From the NCBI GenBank assembly GCA_963733095.1, contig CAVTBV010000013.1, forward strand, positions 64,001-128,000: 64,000 bases of DNA. Reading direction: 5' to 3'. Source of the stretch: Candidatus Bathyarchaeota archaeon (GTDB lineage: Archaea > Thermoproteota > Bathyarchaeia > Bathyarchaeales > Bathycorpusculaceae). The notes beneath the pieces were generated by a model that saw only the letters and a list, made by a program, of their open reading frames with translations, was not told the origin of the DNA and searched no databases. A program made the translations under genes and the position numbers. Positions 9,771 through 30,451 of the stretch are shown here, piece by piece; within the stretch, counting starts at the first letter, position 1; the number at the start of each line of letters is the position of its first letter.

Positions 9771-9840
9771 TGCCGCGGGATGTTTAGATTTACACCCACG
9801 TTCAAATTCCCCACGAAGAAACAAGAAAAGGGTAGTAGAA
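9771..9840. repeat. degenerate tRNA-Ser 3'-end att copy A plus right arm shared with copy C
   Basis: TGCCGCGGGATGTTTAGATTTACACCCACG vs tRNA TGGCGCGGGATGTGGGAATTGAACCCACG; downstream TTCAAATTCCCCACGAAGAAACAAG resembles 21106-21130. Confidence 0.8.
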
Positions 9841-9993
9841 CTTCCCTCTCCAAACTCAGACGAGATCAAACCCTATAACGCTAAATGGGGGAAACTAACA
9901 CAAATTTACCTGATAAAAAGATATCAAGGTAGGAACGAACCTAACTTACCCGCGGGTGGGTATGCTTGTGCTACAGTTTCAAGGTAAGTAGCC

Positions 9994-10764
9994 TCAATCA
10001 ATCTGAATGCCTGGATACCATTTTCTTGCTGTTTCCCAATAATATGTAAAGAGGTCCCGGCATAATTTGAGGAACTTCTCGTCTTTCCCAAAAAAACCAA
10101 TGTAATCCAGACCGCCGTTATGCGTGCGAAGAACAATATTAGCTTCTTTTTCACTGATTAACAGTGCAACAGGGACTTGTTCTATATACCTACTGCCCAC
10201 CAAAAGCTCTTCCTTGCTGTTTTTAAATTTTTTTGCTAGGGCTTTTGGCATAATGAACTTGAAGTCAAGACCCTTAGATACTTTTTCTTTTGTTGGTTGA
10301 ACGTGACTTGATTCAACCGTTTCACCCATGGCATAAATGAATTTTTCTGCGTCATAAACGATTTTTCGAACCCCGTTTAGGGTGGCTAAAGTGTCTCCAC
10401 AAAACTCTCCACCCGACAACTCACCAAGCCTGTTAACGAACTCATATGGAAGGGCGGAAACATTGTGTTCCAAGAAGTAATCTCCATTTTTCAAAATGAA
10501 ATTGAAACTTGACAGAAGACCCGTCGCCAAACTGCCCAAAGACGTTATTGCGTAGGTGCCGTCAACTTTTTTCTCCACCAACTTGGCTTCACTTAGCCTT
10601 TGCAGGTGCCTGAATGTCTCAGTTACTGTCATGTCAAGTGATTTGGATATTTGCTGCATCTTGAAACCTTGTTTTTCCACCTCAAAAAGTATGCTTGCCC
10701 TTCGGTTGCTGGCAAGCTCAAAAAGAACCTTGGAGATTTCCGATTCTTCTTCGCTCTTGGACAT
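9994..10764 (-). CDS. archaeal ArsR-like winged-HTH transcriptional regulator (DUF1724-type C-terminus), paralog 1
   Basis: LFELASNRRASIL...ETFRHLQRLSEAKLVEKKVDGTYAIT; YFLEHNVSALPYEFVNRLGEL. Confidence 0.8.
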   Translation of the reverse strand: MSKSEEESEISKVLFELASNRRASILFEVEKQGFKMQQISKSLDMTVTETFRHLQRLSEAKLVEKKVDGTYAITSLGSLATGLLSSFNFILKNGDYFLEHNVSALPYEFVNRLGELSGGEFCGDTLATLNGVRKIVYDAEKFIYAMGETVESSHVQPTKEKVSKGLDFKFIMPKALAKKFKNSKEELLVGSRYIEQVPVALLISEKEANIVLRTHNGGLDYIGFFGKDEKFLKLCRDLFTYYWETARKWYPGIQID

Positions 10765-10857
10765 GCTTATTTTTTCGCATCCTTGCAAACTTATTCGTAT
10801 TAACGTCAAATAAATCTTATCACAAAAGTTCGCTATCATTAATTCTGAGGAACAAAC

Positions 10858-11121
10858 ATGAACAACAAAGAAAGCGAAAATGATGAACGCGACTTCTCCA
10901 TCGAACTCGCCTCAAACAGGTATCTGATGCGGTTCTCAACCTCCTCAAACGGCGGTGCCTGCGGCGTCTTAATAGAAGGAACGCTTGGAAGACTTCGACA
11001 TGCCCTCTTTGTGGAACCTCAAATACTGGAAGTTAAGGGCAGCTGCGGAGTTCTCAGATTAAACTTGACATTTAACGAAGTTAAAGATCCAGTTAAAAAA
11101 ACTGGAGGTGAAGAACTATGA
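10858..11121 (+). CDS. hypothetical protein, paralog of 18438..18695
   Basis: FSIEL...VLIEGTLG...ILEVKGSCGVLRL shared with the second copy. Confidence 0.75.
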   Translation: MNNKESENDERDFSIELASNRYLMRFSTSSNGGACGVLIEGTLGRLRHALFVEPQILEVKGSCGVLRLNLTFNEVKDPVKKTGGEEL

Positions 11122-11351
11122 AGTTAAAAGAAAAAGTCATGTTCACCGTATTTGGAGTATTGATTTTCTTCATATCAGGCGGTGTTGCTTGCACATACGG
11201 TAGTACAGGCGCCGTTAACCCAGTCTTGGCAGTCACGCTAGGCGTTTTGGTTTTCTTCATTGCAGGTGCAGCCGCATGCACATACAGCAACAATAGAATT
11301 GCCCAACAGAAAATAAACCAAACCGTGCCTAAAGCAAGCGCTGAGGCATGA
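11118..11351 (+). CDS. small two-TM membrane protein with internal repeat
   Basis: ATGA overlap with upstream gene, GGAGGTGA RBS; repeat LIFFISGGVACTY / LVFFIAGAAACTY. Confidence 0.7.
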   Translation: MKLKEKVMFTVFGVLIFFISGGVACTYGSTGAVNPVLAVTLGVLVFFIAGAAACTYSNNRIAQQKINQTVPKASAEA

Positions 11352-11575
11352 AAGGAGCCGACTTGTAATTACTGAGATCAAAAGTCCTCCAAAGCTTTCT
11401 CTTTTTCTGTCGTAGCTGCAGTTTTGATTTTAAGTAATGCAGTACTCCTTGGCGTTGTAGCAGGGTGGTTTATTGGAATAATCCCTACCCTTCCAGGGTC
11501 CGCTGGTAATGATCCGGTGGTTCTGTACTGTCTTTCAGTTGCGGGGTCGGTGTTTGGGGTTCTGGTTTTACTTGG

Positions 11576-11902
11576 ATGGAAAAAGAAGTACTTCTTAAGG
11601 GGTATCAGAGTTTTGATACCTTTAGATCAGTCATTAAGACTATAGCTGGAGACACTATAAAGGAAGTAATTCCACACAAGTCAGAAGAAAATGTCTTGGA
11701 GTTCATAAGAAAACATGGACAAGTTGCACCAGTTGAAATTCAGGTCTCTTTTGACTATTCAAATAAGGAAGTTCAGTCTATTATTGAAAGTTTAAACGCA
11801 AGGAATCTAATTCAAGTCATTCCGGCAGGAAATGGATCTCTAATAAAACTTTCAAAGGAACCTTCTTCTTGTGATTCAAATTCTGGTGTTTGCAGCATTT
11901 AA
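11576..11902 (+). CDS. hypothetical winged-helix-like protein
   Basis: 108-aa ORF, VLEFIRKHGQV...IIESLNARNLI pattern, C-terminal CDSNSGVC. Confidence 0.45.
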   Translation: MEKEVLLKGYQSFDTFRSVIKTIAGDTIKEVIPHKSEENVLEFIRKHGQVAPVEIQVSFDYSNKEVQSIIESLNARNLIQVIPAGNGSLIKLSKEPSSCDSNSGVCSI

Positions 11903-11970
11903 GAGTCGTGTAGCTTACTTTGAGCAAAACCTGACAAAGACAAACTTGAAAGACTTGGAATTTATGAAGT

Positions 11971-12050
11971 CAATTTAAGCTTAATTATTGAAAATATCTT
12001 CAAAAATAGGATTAAAATGAAAATAATGGCGCGGATTGTGAGAATTGAAC
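11971..12050. repeat. degenerate att copy B plus left arm shared with copy C
   Basis: TGGCGCGGATTGTGAGAATTGAAC at 12027-12050 (21/24 to att core); upstream CAATTTAAGCTTAATTATTGAAAATATCTTCAAAAATAGG resembles 21024-21063. Confidence 0.8.
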
Positions 12051-12735
12051 ACCTTGTTTTTCCGCGGGTTATTTAATTTTTCCATGGTCGGTTATTATTT
12101 GACATGTGTGGTAGCCCGGAAGTTACCCTTCCCAGACTCGAATTTATTTCGAAAAATCCCTTTTTTATCTTATTGAAATCTACTATTAAAAAAGGTCACA
12201 ATTAAAACTAGAGTTAGGAATTGGAGTTGAACCCATATATGTTGGCGACATCGCCAATTCTGCTTCTCCTAAGCAGCTACTTTCTCTTTTTTTAACAATT
12301 CCTTCTATTCATTGGCGGGTATGGCAGGTTATCGCTCATGAACACAGGTCATTTGTACTTTTTCCCCTTTTTAGTATAAAAAAAAGTTTTTCGTGGAACT
12401 ACTATGAACTCCTGGCGTTATGCGATTTTAGTTTTCATTTAAGGCGTTCAAACTGGGCTGTGTAGGCTTCTTGTTAACGTTTACGATATTTGCATTATCG
12501 TAATGATTTTTTTCTCCTTAAGAATCTTTCCAGAAGCCTCAACAAACCATTGGAAGCAAAAATCTTTTCCGGTCAGATATATGACTGATTCGCGTTTCTC
12601 GCTTCATTTGATTTCCGCATTATTTATTTCGCTTTTAATTGGTAAGTACTGTCCTCTTTTTGAGACTCGCTACAAATAAGCAAAGCTTATTAGCCGGGTA
12701 TTAAACGCTTTTGTACCCAAAAGGAGAGAAGAAAA

Positions 12736-15435
12736 ATGCAATTTAAAACAAAAACAACTATTTTGATCGCAACATTTCTGATATTGACAATGGCTATACC
12801 TGCCATAATTCATCCTGCTAACGCACAGACTTCTAGCCAAATGAAATCATACGCTTTCATGGCGGTTGAGCCAAACCCAGTTGGTGTAGGTCAAACCACC
12901 TACATCGCAATGTGGGTTGACGTTCCACTACCTGGAGCATCAGAAGCCAACGATATCCGAAAGCATAACTATCTACTCACTATTACTGCACCCGACGGTA
13001 CTACACAAACACAAACTTGGGCTGTAGTTGCAGACACAACCGGTGCTCAATCAACATCCTTCACACCTACCCAAGTAGGAACCTACAAATTCGCCTTTAG
13101 CTACCCCAACCAAAATTACACATGGACCTCAGCAACTTACTTAGGTAACAACGCCTACACTGGCGTCATATTCTTAGGTGCCAATGCAACCGCAACCCTA
13201 ACAGTCCAAGAAAATCCAGTACCTCAAACACCAAATTCACCTCTGCCAAGTGAATACTGGACAAGACCAATTTACGGAGAAGATTTCAACTGGTACACTA
13301 TAGGATCACAATGGCTTGGAAGTGGTAGTTCCTATACTGCTGCCAGTAGCAACTACTTCGGCTCCTTCCAGCAAGGTGGTATGAACTTATGGCAACAAGG
13401 TGGAACAGGACCAGAAAGTTCACACGTTGTCTGGACAGCTCCATTTGAAGATGGAGGAGTCGTCGGCGGAATAAACACAGGTATCACTGGCGCAACCTTC
13501 TATTCAGGCGGTTCTTACGAAGGCAGATTCCAAAACGCATTGATTATAGACGGTAGACTCTACTACAAAGCACCATTAGGTGACCAAGTCAGCACAACTG
13601 CTACCGGCGCAGGGACCTATACATGCAGAGACTTACGTACAGGCGAAGTCCTTTGGACTAACGACAACATCAACCCAACATTCGGCGAACTATATGACTA
13701 CGAATCTCCAAACCAGCATGGAGTAGTTCCAAATGGCTACCTATGGCAAGCAGTAAGCCAATCATCTACAACACAGACATGGATAGCTTATGACTCATTA
13801 ACTGGCAAATGGTTATTCAATATTACCGATGTACCATCAACAGGCACAATCGCATATACCAGCCAAGGTGAAATCGTCAAATACATTCTAAGTTACAACA
13901 ACGCTGCAAAATCAGGTTGGCTAGCACTCTGGAACTGGACAAGTGCAAACGGAGTTCCTGCAAGTTCTACAACTGCTAATGGGGTACAATTAAATGGACC
14001 CGGATCAGGTACTAACTATCTACAGTTCAGACCAGTCGGCAGAATCATAAACGCAAGCACAGCATACTCATGGAACGTCACAATCGGCGACATAATGGGT
14101 CCATCAAACTCACAACTCGTTCCAGGCACTACAACAACGCAAAACCCAACAATACAGTATGTACTTCCAGGCGATTTACTATTTGGCACAACACCAAACA
14201 TTGCACCAGGTGTTCTATCAATAAGAGGCACCCCTAACCCATACACAGTTTGGACAATTAGCTTAGCAGACAGCGACAAAGGCACAATCATGTGGAAGAA
14301 AACATACGATGCACCAACAGGCAATATGACGCTCAATCTTGGCCCAATAGACCCAGTGAACCGCGTCTGGACCACGACTACCGCTGAAGACATGCAATAC
14401 CAAGGCTATAGTCTGGCTGACGGAAGTAAACTGTGGTCAACTAATACCGATGTACGCGCATTCCAATGGTTCAGCAGCGGCTCAGGCGCAGGCCAAAGAT
14501 GTGTAACTGCATACGGAAACATCTATACCCAAGGCTTCGGCGGCGAAATGTTTGCCTATGCAGCAAACAACGGCACTCTACTGTGGAAATTCAATGACAC
14601 AGCCAGCGGCATGGACACCCCTTGGGGTAACGTACCAATATTCATCGCTGCAATTGCAGACGGCAAAGTCTATGCATTCAACAACGAACACTCACCTAAC
14701 TCACCACTATACAAAGGATACAGCATCTACAGTCTAAACGCTACCACAGGCGAGGAAATCTACAAGATGCTCAGCTGGGCAGGACAAACCGGCGGACAAG
14801 GCTTAAGCACCTCTGTTCTAGCAGACGGCACACTAGTTTACTACAACTACTATGACAACTCACTCTATGCAATCGCTAAAGGTCCAAGTCAAACCACCGT
14901 AACCGCTTCACCGAAAGTCTCAACAAACGGTGACAAAGTCCTGGTAGAAGGCACAGTCACCGACATATCAGCAGGTACAAAACAAAACGAGCAAGCGGCA
15001 AGATTCCCTGCAGGCGTTCCAGCAGTCTCTGATGCAAGCCAAGCAGCATGGATGGAATACGTTTACATGAAACAAGAACGGCCAACCAATGCGACAGGCG
15101 TTCCAGTAACCTTAAGCGTACTCGACCCCAACGGCAACTACTACACTGTCGGCACAACCACAAGCGATTCAATGGGCAACTTCAAGCTGGCATTCACTCC
15201 ACAGGTACCGGGCGAATACAATATCTACGCAAACTTTGCAGGTTCTGGTGCATACTATGGTTCAGGCGCTGAAACCGCAATCGTCGTCGACAATACTGCA
15301 GCATCACCCACACCAGTCGCAACACAAGCACCATCAATGGCTGACCTATACTTTGTCCCAGGCATAATCGGCGTTATCATTGCGATAATCGTCGTTGGTG
15401 CGGTTCTACTCTTAGCTCTTAGAAAGCGTCCATAA
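12736..15435 (+). CDS. secreted, membrane-anchored PQQ-like beta-propeller surface protein
   Basis: Signal peptide, PNPVGVGQ, LPSEYWTRPI, repeated W-containing blades, C-terminal TM plus RKRP. Confidence 0.85.
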   Translation: MQFKTKTTILIATFLILTMAIPAIIHPANAQTSSQMKSYAFMAVEPNPVGVGQTTYIAMWVDVPLPGASEANDIRKHNYLLTITAPDGTTQTQTWAVVADTTGAQSTSFTPTQVGTYKFAFSYPNQNYTWTSATYLGNNAYTGVIFLGANATATLTVQENPVPQTPNSPLPSEYWTRPIYGEDFNWYTIGSQWLGSGSSYTAASSNYFGSFQQGGMNLWQQGGTGPESSHVVWTAPFEDGGVVGGINTGITGATFYSGGSYEGRFQNALIIDGRLYYKAPLGDQVSTTATGAGTYTCRDLRTGEVLWTNDNINPTFGELYDYESPNQHGVVPNGYLWQAVSQSSTTQTWIAYDSLTGKWLFNITDVPSTGTIAYTSQGEIVKYILSYNNAAKSGWLALWNWTSANGVPASSTTANGVQLNGPGSGTNYLQFRPVGRIINASTAYSWNVTIGDIMGPSNSQLVPGTTTTQNPTIQYVLPGDLLFGTTPNIAPGVLSIRGTPNPYTVWTISLADSDKGTIMWKKTYDAPTGNMTLNLGPIDPVNRVWTTTTAEDMQYQGYSLADGSKLWSTNTDVRAFQWFSSGSGAGQRCVTAYGNIYTQGFGGEMFAYAANNGTLLWKFNDTASGMDTPWGNVPIFIAAIADGKVYAFNNEHSPNSPLYKGYSIYSLNATTGEEIYKMLSWAGQTGGQGLSTSVLADGTLVYYNYYDNSLYAIAKGPSQTTVTASPKVSTNGDKVLVEGTVTDISAGTKQNEQAARFPAGVPAVSDASQAAWMEYVYMKQERPTNATGVPVTLSVLDPNGNYYTVGTTTSDSMGNFKLAFTPQVPGEYNIYANFAGSGAYYGSGAETAIVVDNTAASPTPVATQAPSMADLYFVPGIIGVIIAIIVVGAVLLLALRKRP

Positions 15436-15654
15436 ATGAAAATCAATGGGAAATATTTTCCCTCCCTTTTTTAGTCTTAGTCTAAGCGTTTTAAATGGGC
15501 TCAGAGTGCTTCTGGAATAAATTTACGAAGTTCTTCCATCAAGGTACAATCGTAAAGTACGGTTTGGGTTCCACCCAAAGATTCCATAAAAAAATTACAG
15601 CTTTTGAACCTTAGAAAACAGCAGACAACTATATAGGATTCGGTCGTGGAGCTG

Positions 15655-15716
15655 GGGATGGATGGGAGTTGCATCCCTTTCAGTTGGAGACGTCTCCCTC
15701 AAGACTCCCATTTTTG
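15655..15716 (+). ncRNA. candidate hairpin sRNA
   Basis: TATATA at 15630, 9-bp stem ATGGGAGTT/GACTCCCAT followed by a T-run, C/T-rich interior. Confidence 0.35.
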
Positions 15717-15783
15717 TTAATTCAAGAGAAAAGAGAGATGGTAGAACAATCCAGTTTTTCTGATTGGAATAGCAATTAAGTTT

Positions 15784-16074
15784 TTATTTGCTGTAATCCT
15801 TTATCGGTGCAAGTGGTATGGTGGAAGTTTCAGTAACGCCTTCTATTAACCGAATCTTGTCTGCCACAAAATCTAAGGCGTTCGTGTTGGTGTCTGCTTG
15901 AAATAGAAGAGCGAAATCCCATTGTCCAAAAGCTCGGTATGCTTCCTCCAGCTTCACGCCTTCCACAGGTTTTTCGGTGAATTCCATTAATGGTTCATAA
16001 ACTTTTGCAGTCATATTAGGACTTAGTTTAATCATCAACAGATATTTCTGAACTGTTTTTTCCGTTTTAATCAC
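15784..16074 (-). CDS. GYD / Lrp-AsnC ligand-binding-type domain protein
   Basis: AYRAFGQWDFALL...IEGVTETSTIP. Confidence 0.7.
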   Translation of the reverse strand: MIKTEKTVQKYLLMIKLSPNMTAKVYEPLMEFTEKPVEGVKLEEAYRAFGQWDFALLFQADTNTNALDFVADKIRLIEGVTETSTIPLAPIKDYSK

Positions 16075-16398
16075 CTTACGAAAACTTGAAGGTGTTTGAA
16101 TCTAAAAAATGTGTTGCTTAGCAGTTTAAAGTGAGAAAATCTGCCTCAAAACCCCTTTTTTAGTAGTTCTGTCACTTTGGATAATTAGAAATAAAGAGAC
16201 TTTTCACACAATCTGATTTGGGTTCAAATCCCCGGGGTCTTTACAGGTACTGATTTAACTGTAAATAGCAAATCTTAAGTGCAAATTCCAATAAACTTCT
16301 GTAAGCGGCGAGTTACATACAACATTTTTCATTGAGAATAGTAAGGATGAAATCTTTTTAAATCAGATTATATTAACTTAATAAAGAATCAAAAAGTT

Positions 16399-16578
16399 AT
16401 GTCTCATAATACGGGAAAAGAAGAACTTGTTAATACCCCTGCTGGACCAAGACCAAAAAATTCTGTGCACGCGATAAAACCTGGCGGAGTTATCCTAGAA
16501 GAGAAAGGCAGAATAAGTATCCAAGTCTGTAAAACCATAAAAAATCTCCAAGGCGAGCATAACGTTGACTTATCGTAA
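16399..16578 (+). CDS. short hypothetical ORF or gene fragment (59 aa)
   Basis: MSHNTGKEELVNTPAGPRPKNSVHAIKPGG..., below the ORF-track cutoff; overlaps start of next gene. Confidence 0.35.
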   Translation: MSHNTGKEELVNTPAGPRPKNSVHAIKPGGVILEEKGRISIQVCKTIKNLQGEHNVDLS

Positions 16579-16921
16579 GATCAAAAGATGTGACTGGACA
16601 AAATCATTAACTTTCATAGGAATCTATGTAGCAGTCATTTCAATTACCGCTTTTATTCTGCTTGTCACATACTGGTATCTCTGGATAGTATTGGTAGTGG
16701 GCGGATTGTTTATCCTTGTCTTGTGGCACAAAAAATCCACTGCATATCACTGCCCAATATGCGGCAACGAATTCGAAATATCCTTCTTAACCGACTTCTT
16801 TAGCCCCCACGGAGTAACCAAAAACGGGGGCGGTTGGACCTACCTAAAATGTCCCAAATGCTCTAACAGAACAAAAATGGAAATACTTGTAAAGACAAAA
16901 AAACAAATAAAAACTAATTGA
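16565..16921 (+). CDS. membrane protein with zinc ribbon
   Basis: Two TM helices then YHCPICG...YLKCPKC. Confidence 0.7.
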   Translation: MTYRKIKRCDWTKSLTFIGIYVAVISITAFILLVTYWYLWIVLVVGGLFILVLWHKKSTAYHCPICGNEFEISFLTDFFSPHGVTKNGGGWTYLKCPKCSNRTKMEILVKTKKQIKTN

Positions 16922-17073
16922 AACAGAAGAATGGAAGCAGGCCAACGCAGAGGCAAAAAATTAAACGCTTAATCCAATTAGGCAAAAAACACGAGAAAAA
17001 ATAAATAGGATTGGGCTCAAATAAAAAAATTGGTTTGCGAGTAAAATCACGCGCGATAACCGGAAGACCGAAA

Positions 17074-17985
17074 ATGTCCTTTAGATTCAATATTAAACAG
17101 AACATTTACACAATAGGCAAAGTAAAGGTAGGCGGCCAGCCGGGGGAGCTTCCCACTTTTCTGATAGGCTCATTATTTTGGCTAGGTCAGAAAATCGTTC
17201 AAGACGCAAACAAAGGCCTTTTTGATGAACAGCAAGCAGAAAAAATAATCAACACCATGCAAACGCAAAGCGACATAACAGGCATAAAATTTGGCTTTGA
17301 CATAGTTGGAACAACCGAGATTGCCTTTGAGAAATACATAGACTTTGTAGCAAAACATACTGACGCCCCGTTGGTATTAGACGCGATGAGTCCTAAAGCT
17401 CGTATGGCAGCATCGAGCATGGTTAAAAAAATGGGGCTTGCAGACAAGTGCATATACGACTCAGTCTACAAGGGCGTTACAGAATCAGAAATTGCAAAGT
17501 TGAAGGAAAGTGGAATAGAGGCAGCAATTGTTTTAGCAGATAACCAAAAAGACAACAGCTTGGACGGAAAAATGGCTATAGTGCAGGAGGCGCTTGCATT
17601 AGCCAAAAGAGCCGGGATCACAAAACCGCTTATAGATACAGCTATTCCAGCATTTGCACCAGATATGGGTACATCAGTTAGAGCCATACCTGCCATGAAA
17701 GAGAAGTATGGTCATCCTGTAGGCTTGGGTAGCGGGAACGTTGTTACAACCATGGGTTGGGTAAAAGCCAACGTTGCTAAAGAATTTCGTAAGGGATGTG
17801 TAACCGCAACCAACTCGATAATGCAAACGGCAGGCGCTAACTATTTAATGTTCGGACCAGCTGAACAAGCTGAATGGGTATTCCCAGCCGTCGCAGTAAC
17901 TGTCACATACATTGCTTCAGCAGCAGCCGACCTTGGAACAAGACCCCTCGAAGAGTCTCATCCAATCTACAAAGCCTTCCTTTAA
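17074..17985 (+). CDS. mtrH: MtrH-family methyltransferase (stand-alone)
   Basis: KVGGQPGELPTFLIGSLF, ITKPLID, YGHPVG, GANYLMFGP, HPIYK. Confidence 0.85.
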   Translation: MSFRFNIKQNIYTIGKVKVGGQPGELPTFLIGSLFWLGQKIVQDANKGLFDEQQAEKIINTMQTQSDITGIKFGFDIVGTTEIAFEKYIDFVAKHTDAPLVLDAMSPKARMAASSMVKKMGLADKCIYDSVYKGVTESEIAKLKESGIEAAIVLADNQKDNSLDGKMAIVQEALALAKRAGITKPLIDTAIPAFAPDMGTSVRAIPAMKEKYGHPVGLGSGNVVTTMGWVKANVAKEFRKGCVTATNSIMQTAGANYLMFGPAEQAEWVFPAVAVTVTYIASAAADLGTRPLEESHPIYKAFL

Positions 17986-18695: not shown

Positions 18696-18754
18696 CTTTT
18701 GGTGCCTCAATAGCAGTAGAGGTAACGGAATGTGATTAGTTTTATTTGCTAAGC

Positions 18755-18772: not shown

Positions 18773-18804
18773 TGAATCCAAATTCTTAACAAGAGTGGTT
18801 CGAA

Positions 18805-21818: not shown

Positions 21819-22790
21819 TTACTCCACAGCTATTACTATTTTTCCTCGTTGTTTTCCTTCCTCGAGATACCGTAGAGCCTCAGCAGTCTCACTCAACGAA
21901 TAACATCTATCTATAACAGGCACCACATTGCCGGATTCAATAAGCTCTTTTACAAAAACCAAATCTTCTCTTTTGTTTGGTTCCATAGGAATACCCATTT
22001 TCTTGCTTCCAGTCATTGAAATCAACGGACCTATGAACAAAGCTTGGAAAATTGCAGTCCTAGAACCTCCGACTATAAGATAAATGCCCTTGGAACTCAA
22101 AGCACACTTGTAATCGAAAATAGAGTGATGTGCCGCAACATCAAGAATCAGGTCATATGTCTGCCCATTTTTGGTGAAATCTTCTTTAGTGTAATCAATG
22201 ACGTGGTCTGCACCAATTGAGCGCAGCATGTCCAATTTATCCGTGCTATCCACGCCAGTCACCTCAGCCCCAAAGTACTTGGCAATCTGCACCGCGAATG
22301 TACCTATACCACCGCCTGCACCATTAATCAAAACTTTTTGTCCTTGCTCAATTTTTCTTTTAGCACGAAGATACTTCATGGCGATAGCGGCTCTTGAGGT
22401 TACGGTCGCTGCTTCTGCAAATTTCATGCTGACTGGTTTTAGTACTAAAGCATCTTCAGGTGCACATACATACTCTGCAAAAGCGCCAAAACCATAGTTG
22501 GTTAAGTCTCCGAATACGTCATCACCTGGCTGAAACTGCTGTATGTTTCTGCCAACCGCTTCAACCCGCCCCGCTATGTCAGAACCGAGTATCTTGTATT
22601 TTGGTCTTAAAGGCCCAATTAAGCGGACAGCGATCGTACCTCTCAGGTGTTCTAAGTCATCTACGTTTACAGATGCTGCATATACTTTTACCAGCACTTC
22701 GTTGTCCATTGGAATGGTTTTTTCTACCTCTTTGAGCTGGAGAACATCTGGTGATCCGTATTTAGTGCGTATAATTGCTTTCATTTTCAC
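21819..22790 (-). CDS. NAD(P)-dependent MDR oxidoreductase (quinone-oxidoreductase-like)
   Basis: YGSPDVL, GAGGGIGTFAVQIAK, GADHVIDYT, GKIVI. Confidence 0.9.
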   Translation of the reverse strand: MKMKAIIRTKYGSPDVLQLKEVEKTIPMDNEVLVKVYAASVNVDDLEHLRGTIAVRLIGPLRPKYKILGSDIAGRVEAVGRNIQQFQPGDDVFGDLTNYGFGAFAEYVCAPEDALVLKPVSMKFAEAATVTSRAAIAMKYLRAKRKIEQGQKVLINGAGGGIGTFAVQIAKYFGAEVTGVDSTDKLDMLRSIGADHVIDYTKEDFTKNGQTYDLILDVAAHHSIFDYKCALSSKGIYLIVGGSRTAIFQALFIGPLISMTGSKKMGIPMEPNKREDLVFVKELIESGNVVPVIDRCYSLSETAEALRYLEEGKQRGKIVIAVE

Positions 22791-23129
22791 ACATGCTAAT
22801 CACTTTTAACGTATATAAGAGCGCTCGCTAACCAGACCAAAATTATGCTTGTCCGTACAGCTTTTTGTATAGATAGCCAACAACTATTCCTGGGAAGAGA
22901 AACCTTGGAATGTTCATTACTGTGTCGACCAAAAGTAGACATAGGTATTGCTTAGATTGCCAAAAGTTGAAAGGACTTCGATGATGACTAAGGCAACAAA
23001 GCTAAGGATCAAGGCTTATAGAATTGGGCTGAAAAATTCAGAAATTTGCAAGCACAATGATTTTTATCTTTTTCCTGAGCCCTTTTTTGGTAAATAACAA
23101 AAAATTAAGCTCTGTTTGGCAAAAGGAGC

Positions 23130-24017
23130 GTGGCGCGGGATGTGGGAATTGAACATACTGCTCCTGAGTTTATGGTCTATCTTAAACAGAATATTAGGGA
23201 AGTTACTGCTAAAACATACGTTAAACGGCTAGGACTTCTTAGTAAGGTAGCTAATCTGGATGATGCTGAGAAGACTAAAAATGTGATTTGTAGTTATCCA
23301 TGTACCGAATCGTTTAAGGAATTAATGGCTAGTGCATATGATTACTATGTTCGTTACAAAGGTCTAACTTGGAATAAACCCAGATTCACAAGAGATGATA
23401 AACCATTCTTTATTCCGTTAGAAACTGAGATAGACCAACTAATCAGTAAATCTAGAAAGAAGATGTCTGTGTTTCTACAGTTGCTTAAGGAGACTGGTGC
23501 CGATTCTGGTGAAGCATGGAAACTAAGATGGCTTGATGTTAACCTTGAAAATAAAACTGTTGCTATCACACCTACAAAGAATCATAATTCTAGGGTATTG
23601 CCGATTTCTAATAATTTGCTGTCTAGAATGCTAAGTTTGCAACGTGAGAATGAAAGAGTATTTGGTTGTAATGCTCATACGCTCGATGATTTCAGACGTA
23701 GATTTGAAGACATGAAGAATGCGCTTAGTATAAAACTAGAGAATCCCAGATTAAAGGAGATAGCATTCCGTTCATTTAGGCATTGGAAAGCAACAACTGA
23801 GTACCATAAAACAAAGGATATTTTGCATGTTAAATGGTTGCTGGGTCATAAACGGATTGAGAACACGTTAGTCTATACGCATCTAGTAAACTTTGATAGT
23901 GATGAATACGTCTGTAAGGTTGCTAAGACTCTTGATGAGGCTTCTGTTCTGATTGAATCTGGATTTGAATATGTTACGGAGATGAATAGTGTTAAATTGT
24001 TCAAAAAACGCAAATAG
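23130..24017 (+). CDS. tyrosine integrase, C-terminal fragment int(C)
   Basis: Begins inside att; ETGxxxGE, TKNH, RSFRHWKAT, LLGHK, TLVYTH. Confidence 0.9.
   Translation: MARDVGIEHTAPEFMVYLKQNIREVTAKTYVKRLGLLSKVANLDDAEKTKNVICSYPCTESFKELMASAYDYYVRYKGLTWNKPRFTRDDKPFFIPLETEIDQLISKSRKKMSVFLQLLKETGADSGEAWKLRWLDVNLENKTVAITPTKNHNSRVLPISNNLLSRMLSLQRENERVFGCNAHTLDDFRRRFEDMKNALSIKLENPRLKEIAFRSFRHWKATTEYHKTKDILHVKWLLGHKRIENTLVYTHLVNFDSDEYVCKVAKTLDEASVLIESGFEYVTEMNSVKLFKKRK
23131..23154. repeat. attL (24 bp, identical to tRNA-Ser 3' end)
   Basis: TGGCGCGGGATGTGGGAATTGAAC. Confidence 0.95.
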
Positions 24018-24108
24018 TTAATTTAAATAGTAGCTTCCAACAAATGCTTTCTTGTCTGGCGAAATTAGTTTGGCTGTTAGACCAATAAAAAAATAACGGA
24101 CTAGGCAA

Positions 24109-24684
24109 ATGAGCGACATAAACAATAATTGGAGATTTACTCGAACACCAGTAGCCCCAGACAAACTAAAACAACTAAAGCAACAATCAAAAGCAAAAAC
24201 TATTGAGTTTTTAATATCTCAAGTACCACAGGGAATTGAACTTTGCAAACAAAATATTGCAGATTTTATAAATGATGCGAGAATCATAAATGAGAAAGGC
24301 AGACTTTGTCACGCATATGTATCTTTCGAGTTTGCTCTTGAAGAATTTGGGAAAATAATGATGTTAAAAGAAGCACTAATTAATTCGGTAGTCAACGATA
24401 AAATTGTTGTAAGTAAAGACTTTTTTAAACACAATAGAAAGTGTGAGAAAGCGATTGAAAAATTGGGTGCTGAGTTCAAATCTGTGTATGATATGAATTG
24501 GTTTCTAAGAGAAACGCTCGGACTATATCCTTTATGGTATGGCACTAAAACCAGCCACGAGACAAGAACAGACTGTGCTTTTGTAAATTATAGAAACGAT
24601 GAATTTGTAATTGGAAGACCAATTGACTCCGTGAAATTTATTAAACTCATAAATCAATTAGAAGAAAAAACAATGTTGGAATAA
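24109..24684 (+). CDS. AbiV-family (HEPN) abortive-infection-like protein
   Basis: FINDARII...AYVSFEFALEEFGK...FFKHNRK pattern. Confidence 0.7.
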   Translation: MSDINNNWRFTRTPVAPDKLKQLKQQSKAKTIEFLISQVPQGIELCKQNIADFINDARIINEKGRLCHAYVSFEFALEEFGKIMMLKEALINSVVNDKIVVSKDFFKHNRKCEKAIEKLGAEFKSVYDMNWFLRETLGLYPLWYGTKTSHETRTDCAFVNYRNDEFVIGRPIDSVKFIKLINQLEEKTMLE

Positions 24685-24836
24685 TTTACTGCAAGGACGA
24701 ATTCCCGTAAATGTTTTCATAAGACACTACTGGAGTCCTAAGTTAGTTGAGTTGCGAGACAGAATCCTTAAGGCATTAGAGCTTTTAGATAAAGAACGAC
24801 AGCAACCATTAGTAACAAGATGACGTATTCTGGAAA

Positions 24837-25349
24837 CTAAGTAAACGTAAATCGATTTGATGACTTATGTTCTTCCTGTTTTTTTGTTATTTGTTTAAAT
24901 TCGTTTTGTAATGGTATATAAACTGTTGTTATCGAAACTATTCCAACATAAAAGAATGCGGCAGAAGCTACCATGAAAATACCCACTATATAATAGCCTC
25001 CTGTATTGTCGGGATTTTGAACAGTTAACCAAAGAGCATCAATTACTACCGAACCTAAATAAAGTACAAAAGTAATTATAACTCCAAAGAACAGACGTAC
25101 AGGCATTTTTTTCAAGTAATTTATGTCTTTACGCAATTTGGTAAGTTGCTTCATTTCTTTATTATTGGAAACAGGTGTAATATTACTTTTGACTTCTTCA
25201 AATTTCGCTAACTTATCGTTTAACTCCGTATTTAATTCTTCAAAAACTCGATGAAACATTGGTATAATCAGCGCGTATGCAGCAAGAACCAATCCAGCTC
25301 CAGTTATACTCGCTTCCATGAAACCAATAACAATGGATGAGTCTATCAA
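24837..25349 (-). CDS. hypothetical membrane protein (3 TM plus coiled coil)
   Basis: Hydrophobic segments flanking a charged helix. Confidence 0.65.
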   Translation of the reverse strand: MIDSSIVIGFMEASITGAGLVLAAYALIIPMFHRVFEELNTELNDKLAKFEEVKSNITPVSNNKEMKQLTKLRKDINYLKKMPVRLFFGVIITFVLYLGSVVIDALWLTVQNPDNTGGYYIVGIFMVASAAFFYVGIVSITTVYIPLQNEFKQITKKQEEHKSSNRFTFT

Positions 25350-26448
25350 ATTCTCGTCCCTACACCATTATATTTCAATGATGCTCGCATTTAAGACTTC
25401 TCACTAACAGAACATACGAGTTAGAATTTCATAAACTATCCCTTACTAACGCCATAACCCAATACTCAATAACCGTATATACAACTACAGATGCCCATCT
25501 GACTGTATCGACACCTTCTAGTCGATTATGTTTATTCACTAAGATGTCAATTTTATTTCTCTCATTCATATATTTGTTTATTTGTGTTATTTCATTACAA
25601 AGATTTCTTGTCTAGATTCCAACTGCATTTGCTCTATCGTCACATAATAGCATTTATATTATAGATTTGCTTATCTTTACATGCTACAAGGGTGTTACGG
25701 AAATCGTTTTACTCATGGAGTAGTCGGTTTAAAAACCTATTACAGAAGCGTCTGTACCTCAATGAGGCTAAGTGTGGATTAATGGCTAGTTCCCCTAGGC
25801 ATAGGCTTCAGGATATTAAGAACTAGTAAACAAGCAGATTAGTAAAACCGCTAGTGAAATTGCTATTAGGATAAACTATGTCTCTAGTGATGTATTATTT
25901 CTCTATTGATATAGTATGTCTTTAGTGTGTCTAAGTATATGCATTTATCCAAACCGTTCATCTAGCTTGGTTATCTGTCTGTTTTAGTTACCGACTTATT
26001 TTTATTAAACGGATTTTTGTAGTTAAATTGGGAAAATGATGTGGGAAGCATCTTTCGTTGTGTGAAATCTTGGTTAAAAGTTGAGTGTGGGTAAAATCTC
26101 TATGAAAGGTTGTTTTTGTAATTGTTATAAGAAAAAGAATAACTGTTGGAGAGATAAAAACCATTGCTACATGGATGAAACGAAACAAATCTCTAACAGG
26201 CATATTTAGTTGATGTAAGAGTGGTGAATTATTTAAGGGTTAGTGGTGAGTTGGTATAGATGCAAAGAAATCTCTAATTGTTGGTGTATTAGTTGGAATG
26301 TATTTTGTTGGAAATCTTTAGATGTGGGAAGTATAATTTTAGTGTAGATGAACATCTGGTAAATTAATCGATGAAGTGATTATAGGTCTATTTAGGTACA
26401 TATATTAGGGGGCATTTAGTAGTGTTTAAGTATGGGGGATAAGATGAT

Positions 26449-26811
26449 ATGAGTGAAATTGGGGATAATTATATAGCAGTTATTAATTCAGAAATAAAAG
26501 CTGGATTGTTAAAGTGTGATAAGTTGCAAACTATTGTAAAAGATGCTTTAGGAGAAGATGACTACCAAACGGCACGGCGGGCTGGGAATGAATTCCGAAT
26601 GGAAATTGCAGTTATAATGCAGAAGAATGATGAGCAGATGGTTGAGGTACTTAAAAGACAACGTGTAGATGCATTTGGTGGGTATATGCCAACAACGCTC
26701 TCAGGTGGGTCAAAAAACAGAGATGTTACAAAAAGTGATGATGAAAGTGAAATTATCAGCAGAATATTAAGAGGAGAAATCAAAAGTGTTAGAACGGCTA
26801 TGGAATCGTAA
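26449..26811 (+). CDS. hypothetical protein (element operon gene 1)
   Basis: 120-aa ORF with G-rich RBS upstream. Confidence 0.6.
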   Translation: MSEIGDNYIAVINSEIKAGLLKCDKLQTIVKDALGEDDYQTARRAGNEFRMEIAVIMQKNDEQMVEVLKRQRVDAFGGYMPTTLSGGSKNRDVTKSDDESEIISRILRGEIKSVRTAMES

Positions 26812-27016
26812 AAAAACGGGTAAAAAGGCAGTTGAGGTTACAGAAATGCAAACAGCAATTCCTAAAGTGAATAGAGGCTGTGTTCGTTGTAGATATGCGA
26901 TTATAAAAGATGGTTGGCACGTTGAGTTAAACCGATGCCTTTCGAGGGGTTTGGTATTAGGCAAAGATATAACGAAAGAGGATGGCTGTGAGAAATTCAG
27001 TCCTTTGGAGGGTTAA
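26786..27016 (+). CDS. small Cys-containing protein
   Basis: CVRC...C...C; overlaps neighbours. Confidence 0.5.
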   Translation: MLERLWNRKKTGKKAVEVTEMQTAIPKVNRGCVRCRYAIIKDGWHVELNRCLSRGLVLGKDITKEDGCEKFSPLEG

Positions 27017-27018
27017 AA

Positions 27019-27201
27019 TTGCCGAGGCGTATGGGGATTTATCCAAGAAAACCAATAAGCATAACTTTAGACGTTGAAACGATAGCAATGTTGCAAGCGG
27101 TTAAAACCGTAATGGGTATGAGTTCTTTGAGTTCTACGATTGAGGACTTATGTATTATTGGAATCAAGAATTCAAAATTTCCGCAAGGGAGTAGAGATTA
27201 A
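27019..27201 (+). CDS. ribbon-helix-helix-like DNA-binding protein
   Basis: RKPISITLDVETIAML...LSSTIEDL. Confidence 0.55.
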   Translation: MPRRMGIYPRKPISITLDVETIAMLQAVKTVMGMSSLSSTIEDLCIIGIKNSKFPQGSRD

Positions 27202-27202
27202 A

Positions 27203-27712
27203 ATGAGCGGAAACTTAATCGTAAAAGATTCATGCATAGAATGTAAACACGTTTCAGAAAAAATAGAGTTTGGTTACTGTGACTGTGACACTAACGATTA
27301 TTCAAAAGGAGAAAAATCGCAAGCCGAAATATCTTGGCTAAGACGACACGGCAAACTGTCAGAAATTAAAAAACCGTTAAGCTATACGATTGCTTCGGTT
27401 GAACAACCCTTAGAAAACGTAATTTCTGCAATGCAGAGGCTATCTGACGAAAGCGCTAGACTACACGGAATCACAAAATCGCTCAGTGATGACTTACAGA
27501 GAAAAAATCGTAAGAGAAAACTTAGATATACAAAATTGAAATTGGAAGTCTCAGTTTCTAAAAGGCTAGAAAAATCAAAGACGCAATTAGAAAAGGGTAA
27601 AAATGAGGTGCTGAAGAAAAGTGACAACTTTGTGGTTTTGGGTGCGCTTAATGGCATGAAAGGCGTTGAAATTACTGGATGGATTGAAAAGAAATTAGTG
27701 GATGGTAACTAA
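27203..27712 (+). CDS. hypothetical protein with CxxC/CxC and basic coiled coil
   Basis: ATG directly after RHH stop; CIEC, CDC. Confidence 0.55.
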   Translation: MSGNLIVKDSCIECKHVSEKIEFGYCDCDTNDYSKGEKSQAEISWLRRHGKLSEIKKPLSYTIASVEQPLENVISAMQRLSDESARLHGITKSLSDDLQRKNRKRKLRYTKLKLEVSVSKRLEKSKTQLEKGKNEVLKKSDNFVVLGALNGMKGVEITGWIEKKLVDGN

Positions 27713-27713
27713 A

Positions 27714-28112
27714 ATGGTTGGTAAGACAGAGAAGTTTATTTTAACTAGTGGGTTGCAGACTGTAGCGTCTGGGTTAGCAACTGCTTTTAGTGTCGATGGT
27801 ACGGGTAAGCTAAGGCATCTTAACATATTGAATGATGGTACGTCTGGTACAGTAACAGTTTGTATTTATTCTGATTCTGGGTTAGTAGTGACTTATGGCA
27901 CAGCTACGCTTGGTTCTGGTGGTTTCGTTCCTGATGTGGATATTATTGGGAGTGCATTGCAGGGGTCTGGTGCGGTTTTAGTTTCAGGTTCTCCAACATT
28001 GAATCAAGAAATAAGTTTCGTGACTAATTTGACAGTGCAGTATTTTAAAACTAGTGGTACAGTGACTTTGACGGGAATAGCGGACATTAACAAAAACATC
28101 ATTCAAACTTGA
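27714..28112 (+). CDS. beta-strand-rich hypothetical protein (possible virion/jelly-roll protein)
   Basis: G/S/T/V-rich alternating pattern, few charged residues, no TM; structural role is inference. Confidence 0.5.
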   Translation: MVGKTEKFILTSGLQTVASGLATAFSVDGTGKLRHLNILNDGTSGTVTVCIYSDSGLVVTYGTATLGSGGFVPDVDIIGSALQGSGAVLVSGSPTLNQEISFVTNLTVQYFKTSGTVTLTGIADINKNIIQT

Positions 28113-28136
28113 GCGAAATGAAGGAAGTAAATCTCT

Positions 28137-28385
28137 ATGGTAGTTTCACTCGGAATTTTACATAATAAAGTGAGACCTCGAAAGGCATGGGGTAGTCAAG
28201 ATTCCGTAAAATGCAGTGGATGCGGTAGGGTGCTTTTGACGAATGAACAGGTTTATCGTATTGGTAAACTCAGACAATCGTATGTTTATAGAGGATTTAA
28301 AATTGATTCAAAACAAGGATACCGCCTTAGATATTTTGGGGATTGTTGCATTAATCAAGTTTATGTTGATGGAGATGAAAAGTAA
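28137..28385 (+). CDS. small zinc-binding protein
   Basis: CSGC ... DCC. Confidence 0.55.
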   Translation: MVVSLGILHNKVRPRKAWGSQDSVKCSGCGRVLLTNEQVYRIGKLRQSYVYRGFKIDSKQGYRLRYFGDCCINQVYVDGDEK

Positions 28386-28804
28386 TGAAAGATAAACCTA
28401 TTGTCCCAACCGAAAAAGAGTTGAAAGAGGATTATGGAAAGGCTAATTTACGTGAAAAGCATTTTAGGATTCATCCCGATATTGACGATTTGATTAAAAA
28501 ATACTCTAAGATTCTGAGACGTTCAGAGGCAGATATAGCTAATGAAATGATGAGAATTGGCATTTTATCGTTTCAATTGAAGCACGGGTTGCGGTCTAAG
28601 TTGGCACCGTTGATGATTGGTCGGGATTCAGATTTAACTAAACAGTTGAACGACAGAGTTAATTTGATTCTGGAAAAGAAAAAAGCGGAACGTGCAAAGA
28701 AGGCAAATGACCTAAGCGATGCGTTTAGTAAAAAGATAGCTCATGGTTCAAAGGAAGACTGGGAACAGTATAATGATTATAGCGGTAACGTTGAAGAGCA
28801 TTAA
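28385..28804 (+). CDS. RHH-like DNA-binding protein
   Basis: KHFRIHPDIDDLIKKYS...SEADIANEMMRIG; TAATG coupling. Confidence 0.55.
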   Translation: MKDKPIVPTEKELKEDYGKANLREKHFRIHPDIDDLIKKYSKILRRSEADIANEMMRIGILSFQLKHGLRSKLAPLMIGRDSDLTKQLNDRVNLILEKKKAERAKKANDLSDAFSKKIAHGSKEDWEQYNDYSGNVEEH

Positions 28805-29140
28805 TTTACTAGGTAATCTAAGATAGGGGGATTTTTAAGAGTAAAAAAACGGTTATTGTGATACATCTTTCCATGGAAAAACAGATAGAGATTGAATAGA
28901 ACAGTAATGAATAGCATGGTAAAATCCCTATGTAATAACCTATGTGTCAATGTCAATAGGGGTATGGCTGGGACTGTGGACGATGGTATTTCTTATTTAG
29001 TGAATTTATGTTCTCGGTTATTTTTGAGGTTTGCTGTTTAGTTAACAGGTCGGGGGCTACAGTATTACGTGTTTCTGGGATTTTTGTGAGTTTTTTGTCC
29101 TGCAACATTTTAAATACCTAAAGCAATAATAGGAGATTTT

Positions 29141-29818
29141 ATGAGTGAAGAGGATTCTATTTTTGACAAGCTAATGGATAGAATTATTTATGTTCTTATA
29201 ATAGTCGCTGTGATAACAGGAGTTGCTGATTATTTTCGTGATTCTTTAGGCACTTGGTTTCGTCAAAATTGGATAGGTGTTACAGTAGCGGTTGGTGTAT
29301 CTTTTCTAGTATGGTTTTTAGTTTTGATATTGCAAGTTTTCTTAGAAGGCTCAAGTGAATATGGTAAGAAAGTGAAGTTAAAGAAATCAATTATAAGAAA
29401 AAGAATTCTGAAGGAAAGACTCAAAGAACTTGAAGGTCTTGATTTGACAACAGAAGAAAAAGAGTTACAGATTAGTGAATGGGTTGAGAAGGCGTATCAT
29501 AACGAAATTTTAGGTATCTCTACATCAGCATCAACGGAGTCTAAAATAGAACCAGATGTCGAAAAAGTCCCATCTTTATCACAGAGAGAGAAAGAAATAA
29601 TGATAAACAAAGTTAGTACTCGATGCTGTTATCCGAATTGTAGGGAGTCCATCTCTTTAGAGGTACACCATATAATACCGAGAAGTGAAGGCGGAACAAA
29701 CAAAGAAAATAACTTAATTGTTTTATGCAATAATCACCATCATTTAGCAGACAGAGGCGCAATTTCAAGAGATAGATTAAAAATGTACAGCGTAGCAAAA
29801 ATGAAAGATGAATTTTGA
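29141..29818 (+). CDS. HNH endonuclease with two N-terminal TM helices
   Basis: CCYPNC...LEVHHIIPRSEGGTNKENNLIVLCNNHH. Confidence 0.85.
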   Translation: MSEEDSIFDKLMDRIIYVLIIVAVITGVADYFRDSLGTWFRQNWIGVTVAVGVSFLVWFLVLILQVFLEGSSEYGKKVKLKKSIIRKRILKERLKELEGLDLTTEEKELQISEWVEKAYHNEILGISTSASTESKIEPDVEKVPSLSQREKEIMINKVSTRCCYPNCRESISLEVHHIIPRSEGGTNKENNLIVLCNNHHHLADRGAISRDRLKMYSVAKMKDEF

Positions 29819-29991
29819 AGTATTAGAATATTCAATTATTAAGGCATATCTGATATGATTGGATTACGTATGGGCTCTAGCAAAATAGCTAGGCAATACA
29901 TCTGAGTTAATGGGTTAATTTTTAGGACTTTTATTGGGTGGAAACTCTTATATGCTTATAGGTGTATGATTATGTTGGAAGGGATAAGAAA

Positions 29992-30303
29992 ATGGTTAAC
30001 GATTATGAATTTGAAGAAGTGGAAAATCTCCCTACAGTAAAAAGAAATAGAATTGGATTGTACACGACTCTTTTAGAACAGTTTAATGCTAGCGGTAAAT
30101 CTAAGGTTCGGTTGAATTGGAAAGGCAAAGCCGCTCTAGACACGGTGGCTGTCAGTTTAAGAAAAGCAGTTAAGATTAATCCATCGTTGAAAGTTGACGT
30201 TATGTCTGTAAGCAAAATAAATCCAGATAGCAAAAAACGAGAAGTCTGTGAAATCTATCTGTCTAAAACTGTAGAAACAGAACATAAAAAGAAGAGTAGG
30301 TGA
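29992..30303 (+). CDS. small basic hypothetical protein upstream of int(N) (possible excisionase/regulator)
   Basis: Lys/Arg-rich 103-aa ORF, 6 bp before int(N); role inferred from position. Confidence 0.55.
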   Translation: MVNDYEFEEVENLPTVKRNRIGLYTTLLEQFNASGKSKVRLNWKGKAALDTVAVSLRKAVKINPSLKVDVMSVSKINPDSKKREVCEIYLSKTVETEHKKKSR

Positions 30304-30309
30304 GTAAAC

Positions 30310-30388
30310 ATGAAAGACTCTGCTAATAATGGTCAAACACTAAAGACGCTGTGGGTTCAAGGAATGGCGCGGGATGTGGGAATTGAAC
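30310..30388 (+). CDS. integrase N-terminal fragment int(N)
   Basis: MKDSANNGQTLKTLWVQGMARDVGIE reads into attR in the same frame as int(C); GGTGA RBS. Confidence 0.8.
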
Positions 30389-30451
30389 CCACGCGGCCTT
30401 TCGACCACAGACTTAGCAGGCCTGCCCCATACCAGGCTTGGGGAATCCCGC
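30365..30451 (-). tRNA. tRNA-Ser(GCT), CCA encoded
   Basis: GCGGGAT/ATCCCGC acceptor, CAGGC-CTGCTAA-GTCTG anticodon arm, long variable arm, GGTTCAATTCC T-arm, discriminator G. Confidence 0.96.

Follow-up and report, generated by a model that had tools for sequence, protein, structure and literature searches.

The 64-kb window analysed here (the whole stretch of DNA, at its full length) belongs to the 2.84-Mb assembly of a Bathyarchaeon of soil or peat (genome G000; habitat judged from the titles of related records). It contains a single tRNA gene, tRNA-Ser(GCT), which was located by ARAGORN at 30365-30451 on the minus strand, encodes its own CCA end and is the attachment (att) target of a tandem array. 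A repeat search of the window grouped five co-oriented copies of the 3' end of this gene into one repeat family, namely copies A to D at about 9771, 12027, 21077 and 23131 and the tRNA itself at 30365 (starts in the repeat search were 1-2 nt lower). Measured between the cores, the copies delimit blocks of 2256 (A-B), 9050 (B-C), 2054 (C-D) and 7234 bp (D-tRNA). The feature is real, and we think that it is best read as an array in which a recent autonomous element stands before older, integrase-less cassettes of a family with a 48-nt site that occurs genus-wide. Units bounded by direct repeats of the target core, which define such arrays, were found in the window and in relatives. With at most one mismatch, the 13-nt core matched the 2.84-Mb genome 7 times in forward and 0 times in reverse orientation (reversed control pattern: 2 and 3); four of the seven matches fall within the array, site B with its two mismatches not being counted among them. 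Judged by copies of the last 20 nt, tRNA-Ser(GCT) is the sole tRNA gene of G000 with an array.

Each site consists of a tRNA-like core between two arms, which are named here by type. Site A (9771-9818, plus strand), the distal end of the array, has a degenerate core with one mismatch and one extra T, followed by a right arm of type x; its left flank is the region downstream of the ammonium-transporter gene amt2. Site B (12027-12166, plus) combines a degenerate tRNA-like core (22 of 27 nt, by eye) with a right arm of type z and is preceded by a y-type left arm, which forms the right end of block A-B (11950-12026, plus; repeat search and blastn). A second y-type arm ends block B-C (20940-21076, plus) and leads into site C (21077-21124, plus), where the exact 13-nt core is followed by x, that is by a diverged tRNA 3' half and the TTTAAATTCCACACGAA motif of the genus-wide conserved site. 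Block C-D ends in a w-type arm (23031-23130, plus; ending ...GCAAAAGGAGCG) before site D (23131-23154, plus), whose core equals the tRNA 3' end throughout (24 of 24 nt). In the left arm of the newest block (30310-30364, plus), an open frame of 18 codons extends antisense into core and tRNA. The left arm common to B and C extends over 54 nt at 78% identity in the repeat search and 83 bp at 76% in blastn; for the altered core and right arm common to A and C the values are 50 nt at 86% and 82 bp at 83%. A homologue of the y arm of site B adjoins the tRNA in G012. The z arm is 82-92% identical to G000:C13:450169-450310 and rare in the genus, with partial matches in 5 of 100 other genomes. Besides the tRNA, an Rfam search of 9000-31000 at E<=1 returned nothing except one chance miRNA match, and three loci with orphan sites (see below) gave tRNA-Val only, so that the arms do not represent a known RNA.

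A first-pass annotation made from the DNA letters alone had described the five copies at these positions and with this spacing, the two sets of common arms and the lack of integrases in the three older blocks, and our searches (ARAGORN and repeat search for the copies, repeat search and blastn for the arms, tblastn and a Pfam scan of reading frames for the integrases) bore out all of it.

The newest block and its integrase

The block next to the tRNA, E4 (23131-30364, plus strand, 7234 bp), comprises genes for an integrase, a HEPN/AbiV protein and a membrane protein, about 1.1 kb free of open reading frames (ORFs), small unknown ORFs and an HNH nuclease gene. Its GC content is 0.33-0.39, compared to 0.40-0.51 on either side. 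E4 is missing from otherwise matching sites in G108 and in the metagenome contig L107, where the w arm (ending ...AAAAGGAGCG) is joined straight to an intact tRNA-Ser and thus shows the empty site that preceded the insertion. E4 is thus a recent self-contained integrated element. When its 10 proteins were compared with PHROGs, the integrase and the HNH nuclease were recognised, in addition to one weak match of unknown function; neither Pfam nor PHROGs recognised a replication gene in E4. The stretch at 25350-26448, about 1.1 kb without an ORF above 71 aa, may represent the origin or a regulatory region of E4. Among viral contigs, only two distant relatives of the integrase (42-43% identity) and no circular parent of E4 were found.

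The tyrosine integrase gene (23130-24017, plus strand, 295 aa, GTG start; Pfam PF00589 at 2.4e-14, PHROG integrase) begins in core D, and the att core thereby supplies the start of the gene: its first eight codons are the core, and the tRNA-Ser 3' end, read antisense, gives the N-terminal (V/M)ARDVGIE. The protein family is large, with 2480 members at E<=1e-5 among 3025 candidates; 118 of the 119 listed homologues (the window's own protein left out) carry a precomputed PF00589 and one has no domain. Five of 20 fetched homologues contain MARDVG(I/L)E at the start or two residues in and are 293-295 aa long, and most of the others seem to start with peptides that we read as sense-strand translations of the T-arm of other tRNAs. 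The length of the integrated ORF (295 aa) matches that of the 293-295-aa homologues, which cover 100% of it; integration changed ATG to GTG and provided a new upstream region, and the ORF stayed whole. The 18 codons upstream at the tRNA end are not conserved, homologue P0003 having 2. Elsewhere in G000, at least eight full-length and at least eight fragmentary integrase paralogues occur; the remaining integrases of this genome begin with a long Zn-ribbon region and lack a start derived from a tRNA.

Gene capture by SSV-type integrases was reportedly described for archaea by She and co-workers in 2001. An att site inside the integrase ORF, as found here, is the layout of SSV-type capture, and the first-pass annotation had attributed the array to such an enzyme. 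According to passages of a review, the SSV or suicidal integrase family is characterised by a domain named Phage_integr_3 (PF16795), and elements trapped by SSV-type integration can later be excised by a related integrase in trans (PMC8371274). In the window integrase, PF16795 was not detected and PF00589 is the sole Pfam match at E<=0.01. Since it carries PF00589 without PF16795 and its 295-aa ORF is left whole by integration, the enzyme is, judged from its sequence, SSV-like in layout yet fails two defining features of the SSV or suicidal integrases, as these passages give them, and is not a member of the SSV family. The mesophile-type soil or peat host is a further difference from the systems described there.

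Integrase-less blocks and the conserved 48-nt site

The cargo of block A-B (9819-11949) consists of a FilR1/ArsR-like winged helix-turn-helix (wHTH) regulator (9994-10839, minus), small membrane ORFs and a DUF7343-like wHTH protein (11576-11902, plus). Block B-C (12167-20939) encodes a secreted PQQ-type propeller (12736-15435), a Zn-ribbon membrane protein, MtrH (17011-17985), a second FilR1-like regulator (18805-19524) and a CPBP-like protein (19865-20761, minus). Block C-D (21125-23030, minus) contains DUF6326 (21149-21550), an MDR Zn-dehydrogenase (21819-22790) and a dispersed repeat (22852-22914). Pfam confirmed the earlier naming of the two regulators (FilR1/HVO_A0261-like), the PQQ-type propeller, MtrH, DUF6326 and the MDR dehydrogenase; only the 'CPBP' ORF had no Pfam match in the window. 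Its intact orthologue in G010 matches Rce1-like proteins, and because the window ORF aligns to this orthologue in two different frames, it probably represents a frameshifted pseudogene. Paralogues of MtrH and of the propeller exist at other places in G000, and in G012 a block is reduced to approximately 175 nt between a degenerate x and the tRNA. Together with the GC content of the older blocks, this indicates that the cassettes carry ordinary cellular genes and can decay. No integrase remnant was detected in 9771-23131 by tblastn with the E4 integrase at E<=10, nor by Pfam among those 36 of 75 stop-to-stop frames (>=55 aa) that lie outside the large annotated genes.

The altered core and right arm of A and C constitute the x site, 48 nt in all, of which 13 nt equal the tRNA, 16 nt are T-arm-like with five changes and about 19 nt end in TTTAAATTCCACACGAA. 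A 34-nt pattern with <=3 mismatches detected 26 such sites in 18 of 61 genomes of the genus (reversed control: 0). In GTDB species genomes, the exact 33-nt pattern occurs in 23 stretches, all but one of them labelled Bathyarchaeota or Bathyarchaeia; the odd one (L121) is a 6.4-kb contig of a metagenome-assembled genome labelled Candidatus Acidoferrum sp., an acidobacterium, for which mis-binning is likely. IMG/VR held 0 matches to the exact pattern. In all aligned copies, homology ends at the same point, approximately 48 nt from the start of the core, and what follows differs: among the right flanks of the 26 sites, only one pair was alike throughout, four further pairs had short segments in common (39-198 bp, about 0.7-1.4 kb away), and one match arose because two loci on a single contig overlap. 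Where the left flank is orthologous (four genomes), identity was 76-93% in the 3' end of the Fic gene, 29-81% in the 30-nt trailer, 88-98% in core and x and 20-39% (unrelated) in the right flank. Core and x thus have not decayed like the trailer, as a passive relic should have. On the GTDB contig L112, a diverged x-like core lies 1743 nt to the left of the x site and precedes Fic, so the Fic gene may be an old cassette rather than native flank. A derivation of x from the 5' end of a decayed integrase gene was rejected because all 26 copies lose homology at one point. An interpretation of y-core-x as a miniature inverted-repeat transposable element with terminal inverted repeats was likewise discarded, since distal sites have x but no y and a duplication of the target was not visible by eye.

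Conservation of core and x above their surroundings would also be expected if they, like the tRNA, served as homology anchors for the replacement of the DNA in between, and if the sites were retained for a role as trailer and terminator or as TATA-like promoter. The TTTAAAT motif in x, which to our eye resembles an archaeal TATA box, and T-runs that we noticed by eye on the tRNA strand of the left arms could be taken in favour of such homologous exchange. However, 48 nt is short for an anchor, and exchange between anchors would explain neither the new co-oriented copies of the site between cassettes nor the hybrid junctions expected of site-specific integration, so that we regard this explanation as improbable.

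Orthologous loci in the genus differ in what lies downstream of the tRNA. The right flank of the tRNA is syntenic in seven of ten relatives examined; on its 3' side all ten differ, and in G011 the amt gene lies approximately 300 bp from the tRNA. In eight contigs a second co-oriented x-like core occurs 1.2-2.0 kb from the x site, and in three the tRNA follows at 0.9-1.9 kb. These eleven cassettes, 881-1980 nt long and bounded by x-like cores or by x and the tRNA, contain one or two genes each in either orientation, among them ArsB, MFS and ABC ATPase genes, a Zn-dehydrogenase, chagasin together with a papain-like protease, DUF2807, PNPOx, a metallophosphoesterase, a lipocalin (apparently split) and Fic. 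Larger blocks in G001, G003, G010 and G023 encode an MrfA-type helicase, ABC transporters, GNAT, MDR, DUF4386, Rieske and flavodoxin proteins. The window blocks of 2256, 9050 and 2054 bp fit into this series.

Integrases were searched for around these sites with several approaches. None was found within 1.5 kb of the 26 x sites at E<=1e-3, within 2 kb of the 23 GTDB stretches with five integrase queries, or among the 18 cassette ORFs scanned; PF00589 was absent from 47 ORFs of relatives' blocks, and NCBIfam gave nothing integrase-like for 10 unknown proteins of these blocks. At the sensitivity of BLAST and Pfam, the units therefore lack a recombinase of their own, with the exception of G002, where an x-like-bounded block beside the tRNA contains a frameshifted integrase gene.

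Junctions, formation of the array and related systems

Comparison of the C-D block with other populations revealed that sequence identity breaks at the core. The metagenome contig L107 is 97.7% identical to window 20984-23154 overall; divided into segments, identity is 63% in the y arm, 98% in core and x, 99.2% in the C-D block and 96% in the w arm. The GTDB contig L130 repeats the step, with 57%, then 100%, then 92% and 82%. Logan contigs from four sequencing runs of four studies cover only 21077-23092 at about 99%. In X1 and X3, the contigs part from the window sequence exactly at 21077/78 and continue into two different left flanks, of which one looks like a Fic-type trailer and the other like a G010-type arm by our own comparison; in X6, a contig starts at 21077. 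The DUF7343 gene of block A-B and its y arm recur in G111 (87%), where core and x follow in place of z. The breaks at the core and the differing neighbours indicate that units of different history meet there, and the different left flanks of a C-D block conserved at approximately 99% indicate that at least this integrase-less 2-kb unit was recently combined with different neighbours. The best of 23 listed metagenome runs held 14% of the sampled words; four runs were used, as assembled contigs only, and parts of the window that they leave uncovered, E4 included, were not counted as absence. A joint 21111->30365 was not counted either, because it occurs in a single contig with 26 letters on the shorter side and 90% likeness.

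In our assessment, the array probably arose by repeated site-specific insertion of the tyrosine-recombinase type into the 3' end of tRNA-Ser(GCT), with the older blocks representing an integrase-less class inserted in trans. Incoming DNA, presumably a circular intermediate, would carry a copy of the tRNA end, and crossover within the 13-nt core would restore the tRNA and push the previous end and all that lies behind it away. The newest unit should adjoin the tRNA because every insertion displaces the earlier units. For a tRNA on the minus strand, the distal junction would consist of the old trailer, the core and the right arm of the insert, and the proximal junction of the insert's left arm, the core and the body of the tRNA; once another unit has entered, the internal junction would combine the left arm of the older unit, the core and the right arm of the newer one. 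Site C (y, core, x) is expected from serial insertion provided that y-type arms close blocks 1 and 2 and that x opens blocks 1 and 3, and a composite circle with a y-core-x junction entering a resident x site would lead to the same picture. The earlier view of C as a mosaic created by recombination between cassettes is thus not supported: under serial integration, internal junctions unite an older left arm with a newer right arm in any case, and inter-cassette recombination is not needed. The three older blocks would be small integrase-less units that share the conserved 48-nt site (13-nt crossover core and x) and carry unrelated, host-like genes, and a recombinase supplied in trans would have inserted and probably exchanged them.

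Several observations weigh against repeated insertion in trans. Homologues of the E4 integrase with >=60% identity occur only in G000 and G016 (2 of 61 genomes), compared to x in 18 of 61; accordingly, nothing shows that the E4 integrase moves the older blocks. The left arms are heterogeneous and of several kinds, and an inverted-repeat motif is present in 11 of the 53 distinct ones but absent from all five of the window. In G000, three orphan sites of the x or z type, C16:120977-121038 (y-core-x), C12:505905-505937 (core-x) and C13:450169-450310 (core-z), are remote from every detected tRNA and have neither a tRNA nor an Rfam RNA next to them; the C12 site is kept at the same locus in G001 and G016. 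The GC content of the older blocks is host-like. The DUF6326-MDR pair has matches in 33 of 100 other genomes of the genus, and at 10 of 11 fetched loci it is not accompanied by an att core and gene order varies; the exception is G108 (G108/L094), with x, a paralogous MDR gene, an inverted DUF6326 gene, the w arm and an intact tRNA. The frameshifted integrase of G002 suggests that part of the x-type units may have been autonomous in the past. Junctions from excision or circle formation were not seen in the assembled contigs, which hold <=14% of the words and could hardly show one.

The G002 block also belongs to the evidence for a model in which each block is the eroded remainder of an independent element that once had its own integrase, with no mobilisation in trans and with x retained through the conserved attP of related autonomous elements. 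Tandem arrays of tyrosine-recombinase elements are known, as passages in two sources describe (PMC6563490; tycheposons, bioRxiv 10.1101/2020.12.28.424599), G000 holds numerous integrase paralogues elsewhere, and the shrunken G012 block as well as the apparently decayed CPBP gene illustrate erosion. Against this stand the lack of integrases near the 26 x sites and 23 stretches and the eleven cassettes of 0.9-2 kb, which keep both ends and hold only one or two ordinary genes; erosion must each time have deleted the integrase yet spared both arms. Neither does it fit well that populations share the 2-kb C-D block at about 99% identity but differ in its left neighbour. We therefore consider serial decay of autonomous elements unlikely.

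Within the reading favoured here, namely repeated insertion with action in trans, the comparison with relatives strengthened the cassette idea of the first-pass annotation through their 0.9-2 kb units and through the C-D block with its other left neighbour and its break at the core. Of the claim that a cassette array is mobilised in trans by an SSV-type integrase, the att-delimited integrase-less units stand; the SSV label and the identity of the enzyme do not. Three findings had been named in advance as speaking against cassettes, and none of them was made: the arms were always found with a core and not apart from it, gene order and content beside tRNA-Ser(GCT) vary across relatives instead of being fixed, and no decayed integrases were detected in the window's three older blocks.

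Cis-mobilizable elements (CIMEs), known from the literature on bacterial integrative and conjugative or mobilizable elements (PMC5704250), are said to be att-bounded units without integrase. Arrays formed by accretion or containing CIMEs resemble the present one in that direct repeats of the target 3' end bound the units, the newest unit adjoins the intact gene and some units lack a recombinase. Here, in contrast, most units comprise 0.9-2.3 kb with one or two genes, a common 48-nt site is shared across the genus, the host is an archaeon and no helper element was identified. Tandem accretion at tRNA and tmRNA genes is reported for the ssrA islands of Dehalococcoides (PMC3146451), and according to PMC6563490 both archaea and bacteria have arrays in which tyrosine-recombinase elements occupy a common target. 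Excerpts of the work on tycheposons of Prochlorococcus (bioRxiv 10.1101/2020.12.28.424599) describe tRNA-targeted cargo units with an inward-facing integrase and usually replication genes, older units pushed inward, scattered partial tRNAs, niche-gene cargo such as transporters and integrase fragments left in the islands. In the present array, an integrase occurs in E4 only and the combination of an inward-facing end integrase with replication genes was not found; compared with these excerpts, the x-bounded blocks differ by containing neither integrases nor integrase fragments.

Integrons also capture small integrase-less cassettes with their own recombination sites serially at one site. The array differs from them in that it has no platform integrase or Pc promoter, that the target is a tRNA end and that the site seems to be conserved in sequence rather than in fold. 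No platform integrase lies beside the primary site in the window or in ten relatives, and instead of single co-oriented promoterless ORFs the blocks contain 1 to about 6 genes in mixed orientation; the earlier term 'integron-like' can be kept as an analogy only. A fixed platform that captures promoterless cassettes with its own integrase by means of a structured, attC-like site would agree with small integrase-less cassettes in tandem at one site, the newest being proximal. Two of four y-core-x sites tested contain 17-20-nt inverted repeats 115-127 nt apart, single-strand folding of two y-core-x sites gave z scores of -2.5 and -2.6, and in 10 of the 11 left arms with the inverted-repeat motif, this inverted version of the x motif is situated 102-125 nt from the core. 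However, apart from cassette-borne ones, no integrase was found on either side of the tRNA in the window or in the ten relatives, and the restriction of the inverted repeat to a minority of arms, the gene numbers and orientations given above and the conservation of x in sequence, unlike attC, make a dedicated platform very improbable.

A looser form of the analogy, to which we give some credence and which we would still bet against, is a capture system on tRNA-Ser(GCT) in which free cassettes of 1-2 genes use the 48-nt site as tRNA mimic and a tRNA-templated integrase, transiently supplied by E4-like elements, brings them in, cuts them out and reshuffles them at any core. If it existed, such a system would let these archaea draw on a common pool of transporters, oxidoreductases and regulators. 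Gene exchange is poorly known in the abundant, uncultured Bathyarchaeia. A tRNA-anchored array of tiny recombinase-less cassettes would be an archaeal counterpart of integrons and tycheposons, and searches of a limited literature collection for Bathyarchaeia in connection with integrases, tRNA, attachment sites or tandem arrangements yielded no paper that describes one. The cassettes with one conserved site encode transporters for arsenic, drugs and solutes as well as dehydrogenases and regulators; the 48-nt site offers a simple handle for cataloguing this pool in metagenomes, and the integrase family with first codons derived from the target tRNA is a source of candidate enzymes.

Neighbouring genes and dispersed repeats

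Two tandem ammonium-transporter genes (window 6717-9550; proteins approximately 68% identical) flank the array. In relatives, the pair is found 0.3-25 kb from the tRNA in either orientation, and G011 has a single copy that is broken over several frames. At four other tRNA genes of G000 on contigs C1, C6, C9 and C12 (Ser-CGA twice, Thr-GGT and Ser-GGA), one co-oriented copy of the last 20 nt lies 3-13 kb downstream, which suggests further integrated elements.

The dispersed repeat of block C-D (22852-22914, within 22830-23028) is located upstream of the MDR gene. It has a copy at G000:C7:79191-79251 (90%) and is present in many genomes of the genus, sometimes on both sides of the DUF6326-MDR pair (G076). 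Intergenic repeats with several copies in the genome also occur in block B-C at 16933-17048, 18054-18124 and 19644-19788; for instance, 18054-18124 matches C13:453474-453544 at 97% identity, and 16941-17027 matches C3:82375-82462 at 91%. In the region of small membrane proteins in block A-B, 11154-11285 contains a 45-nt direct repeat with 76% identity, the copies being 87 nt apart.

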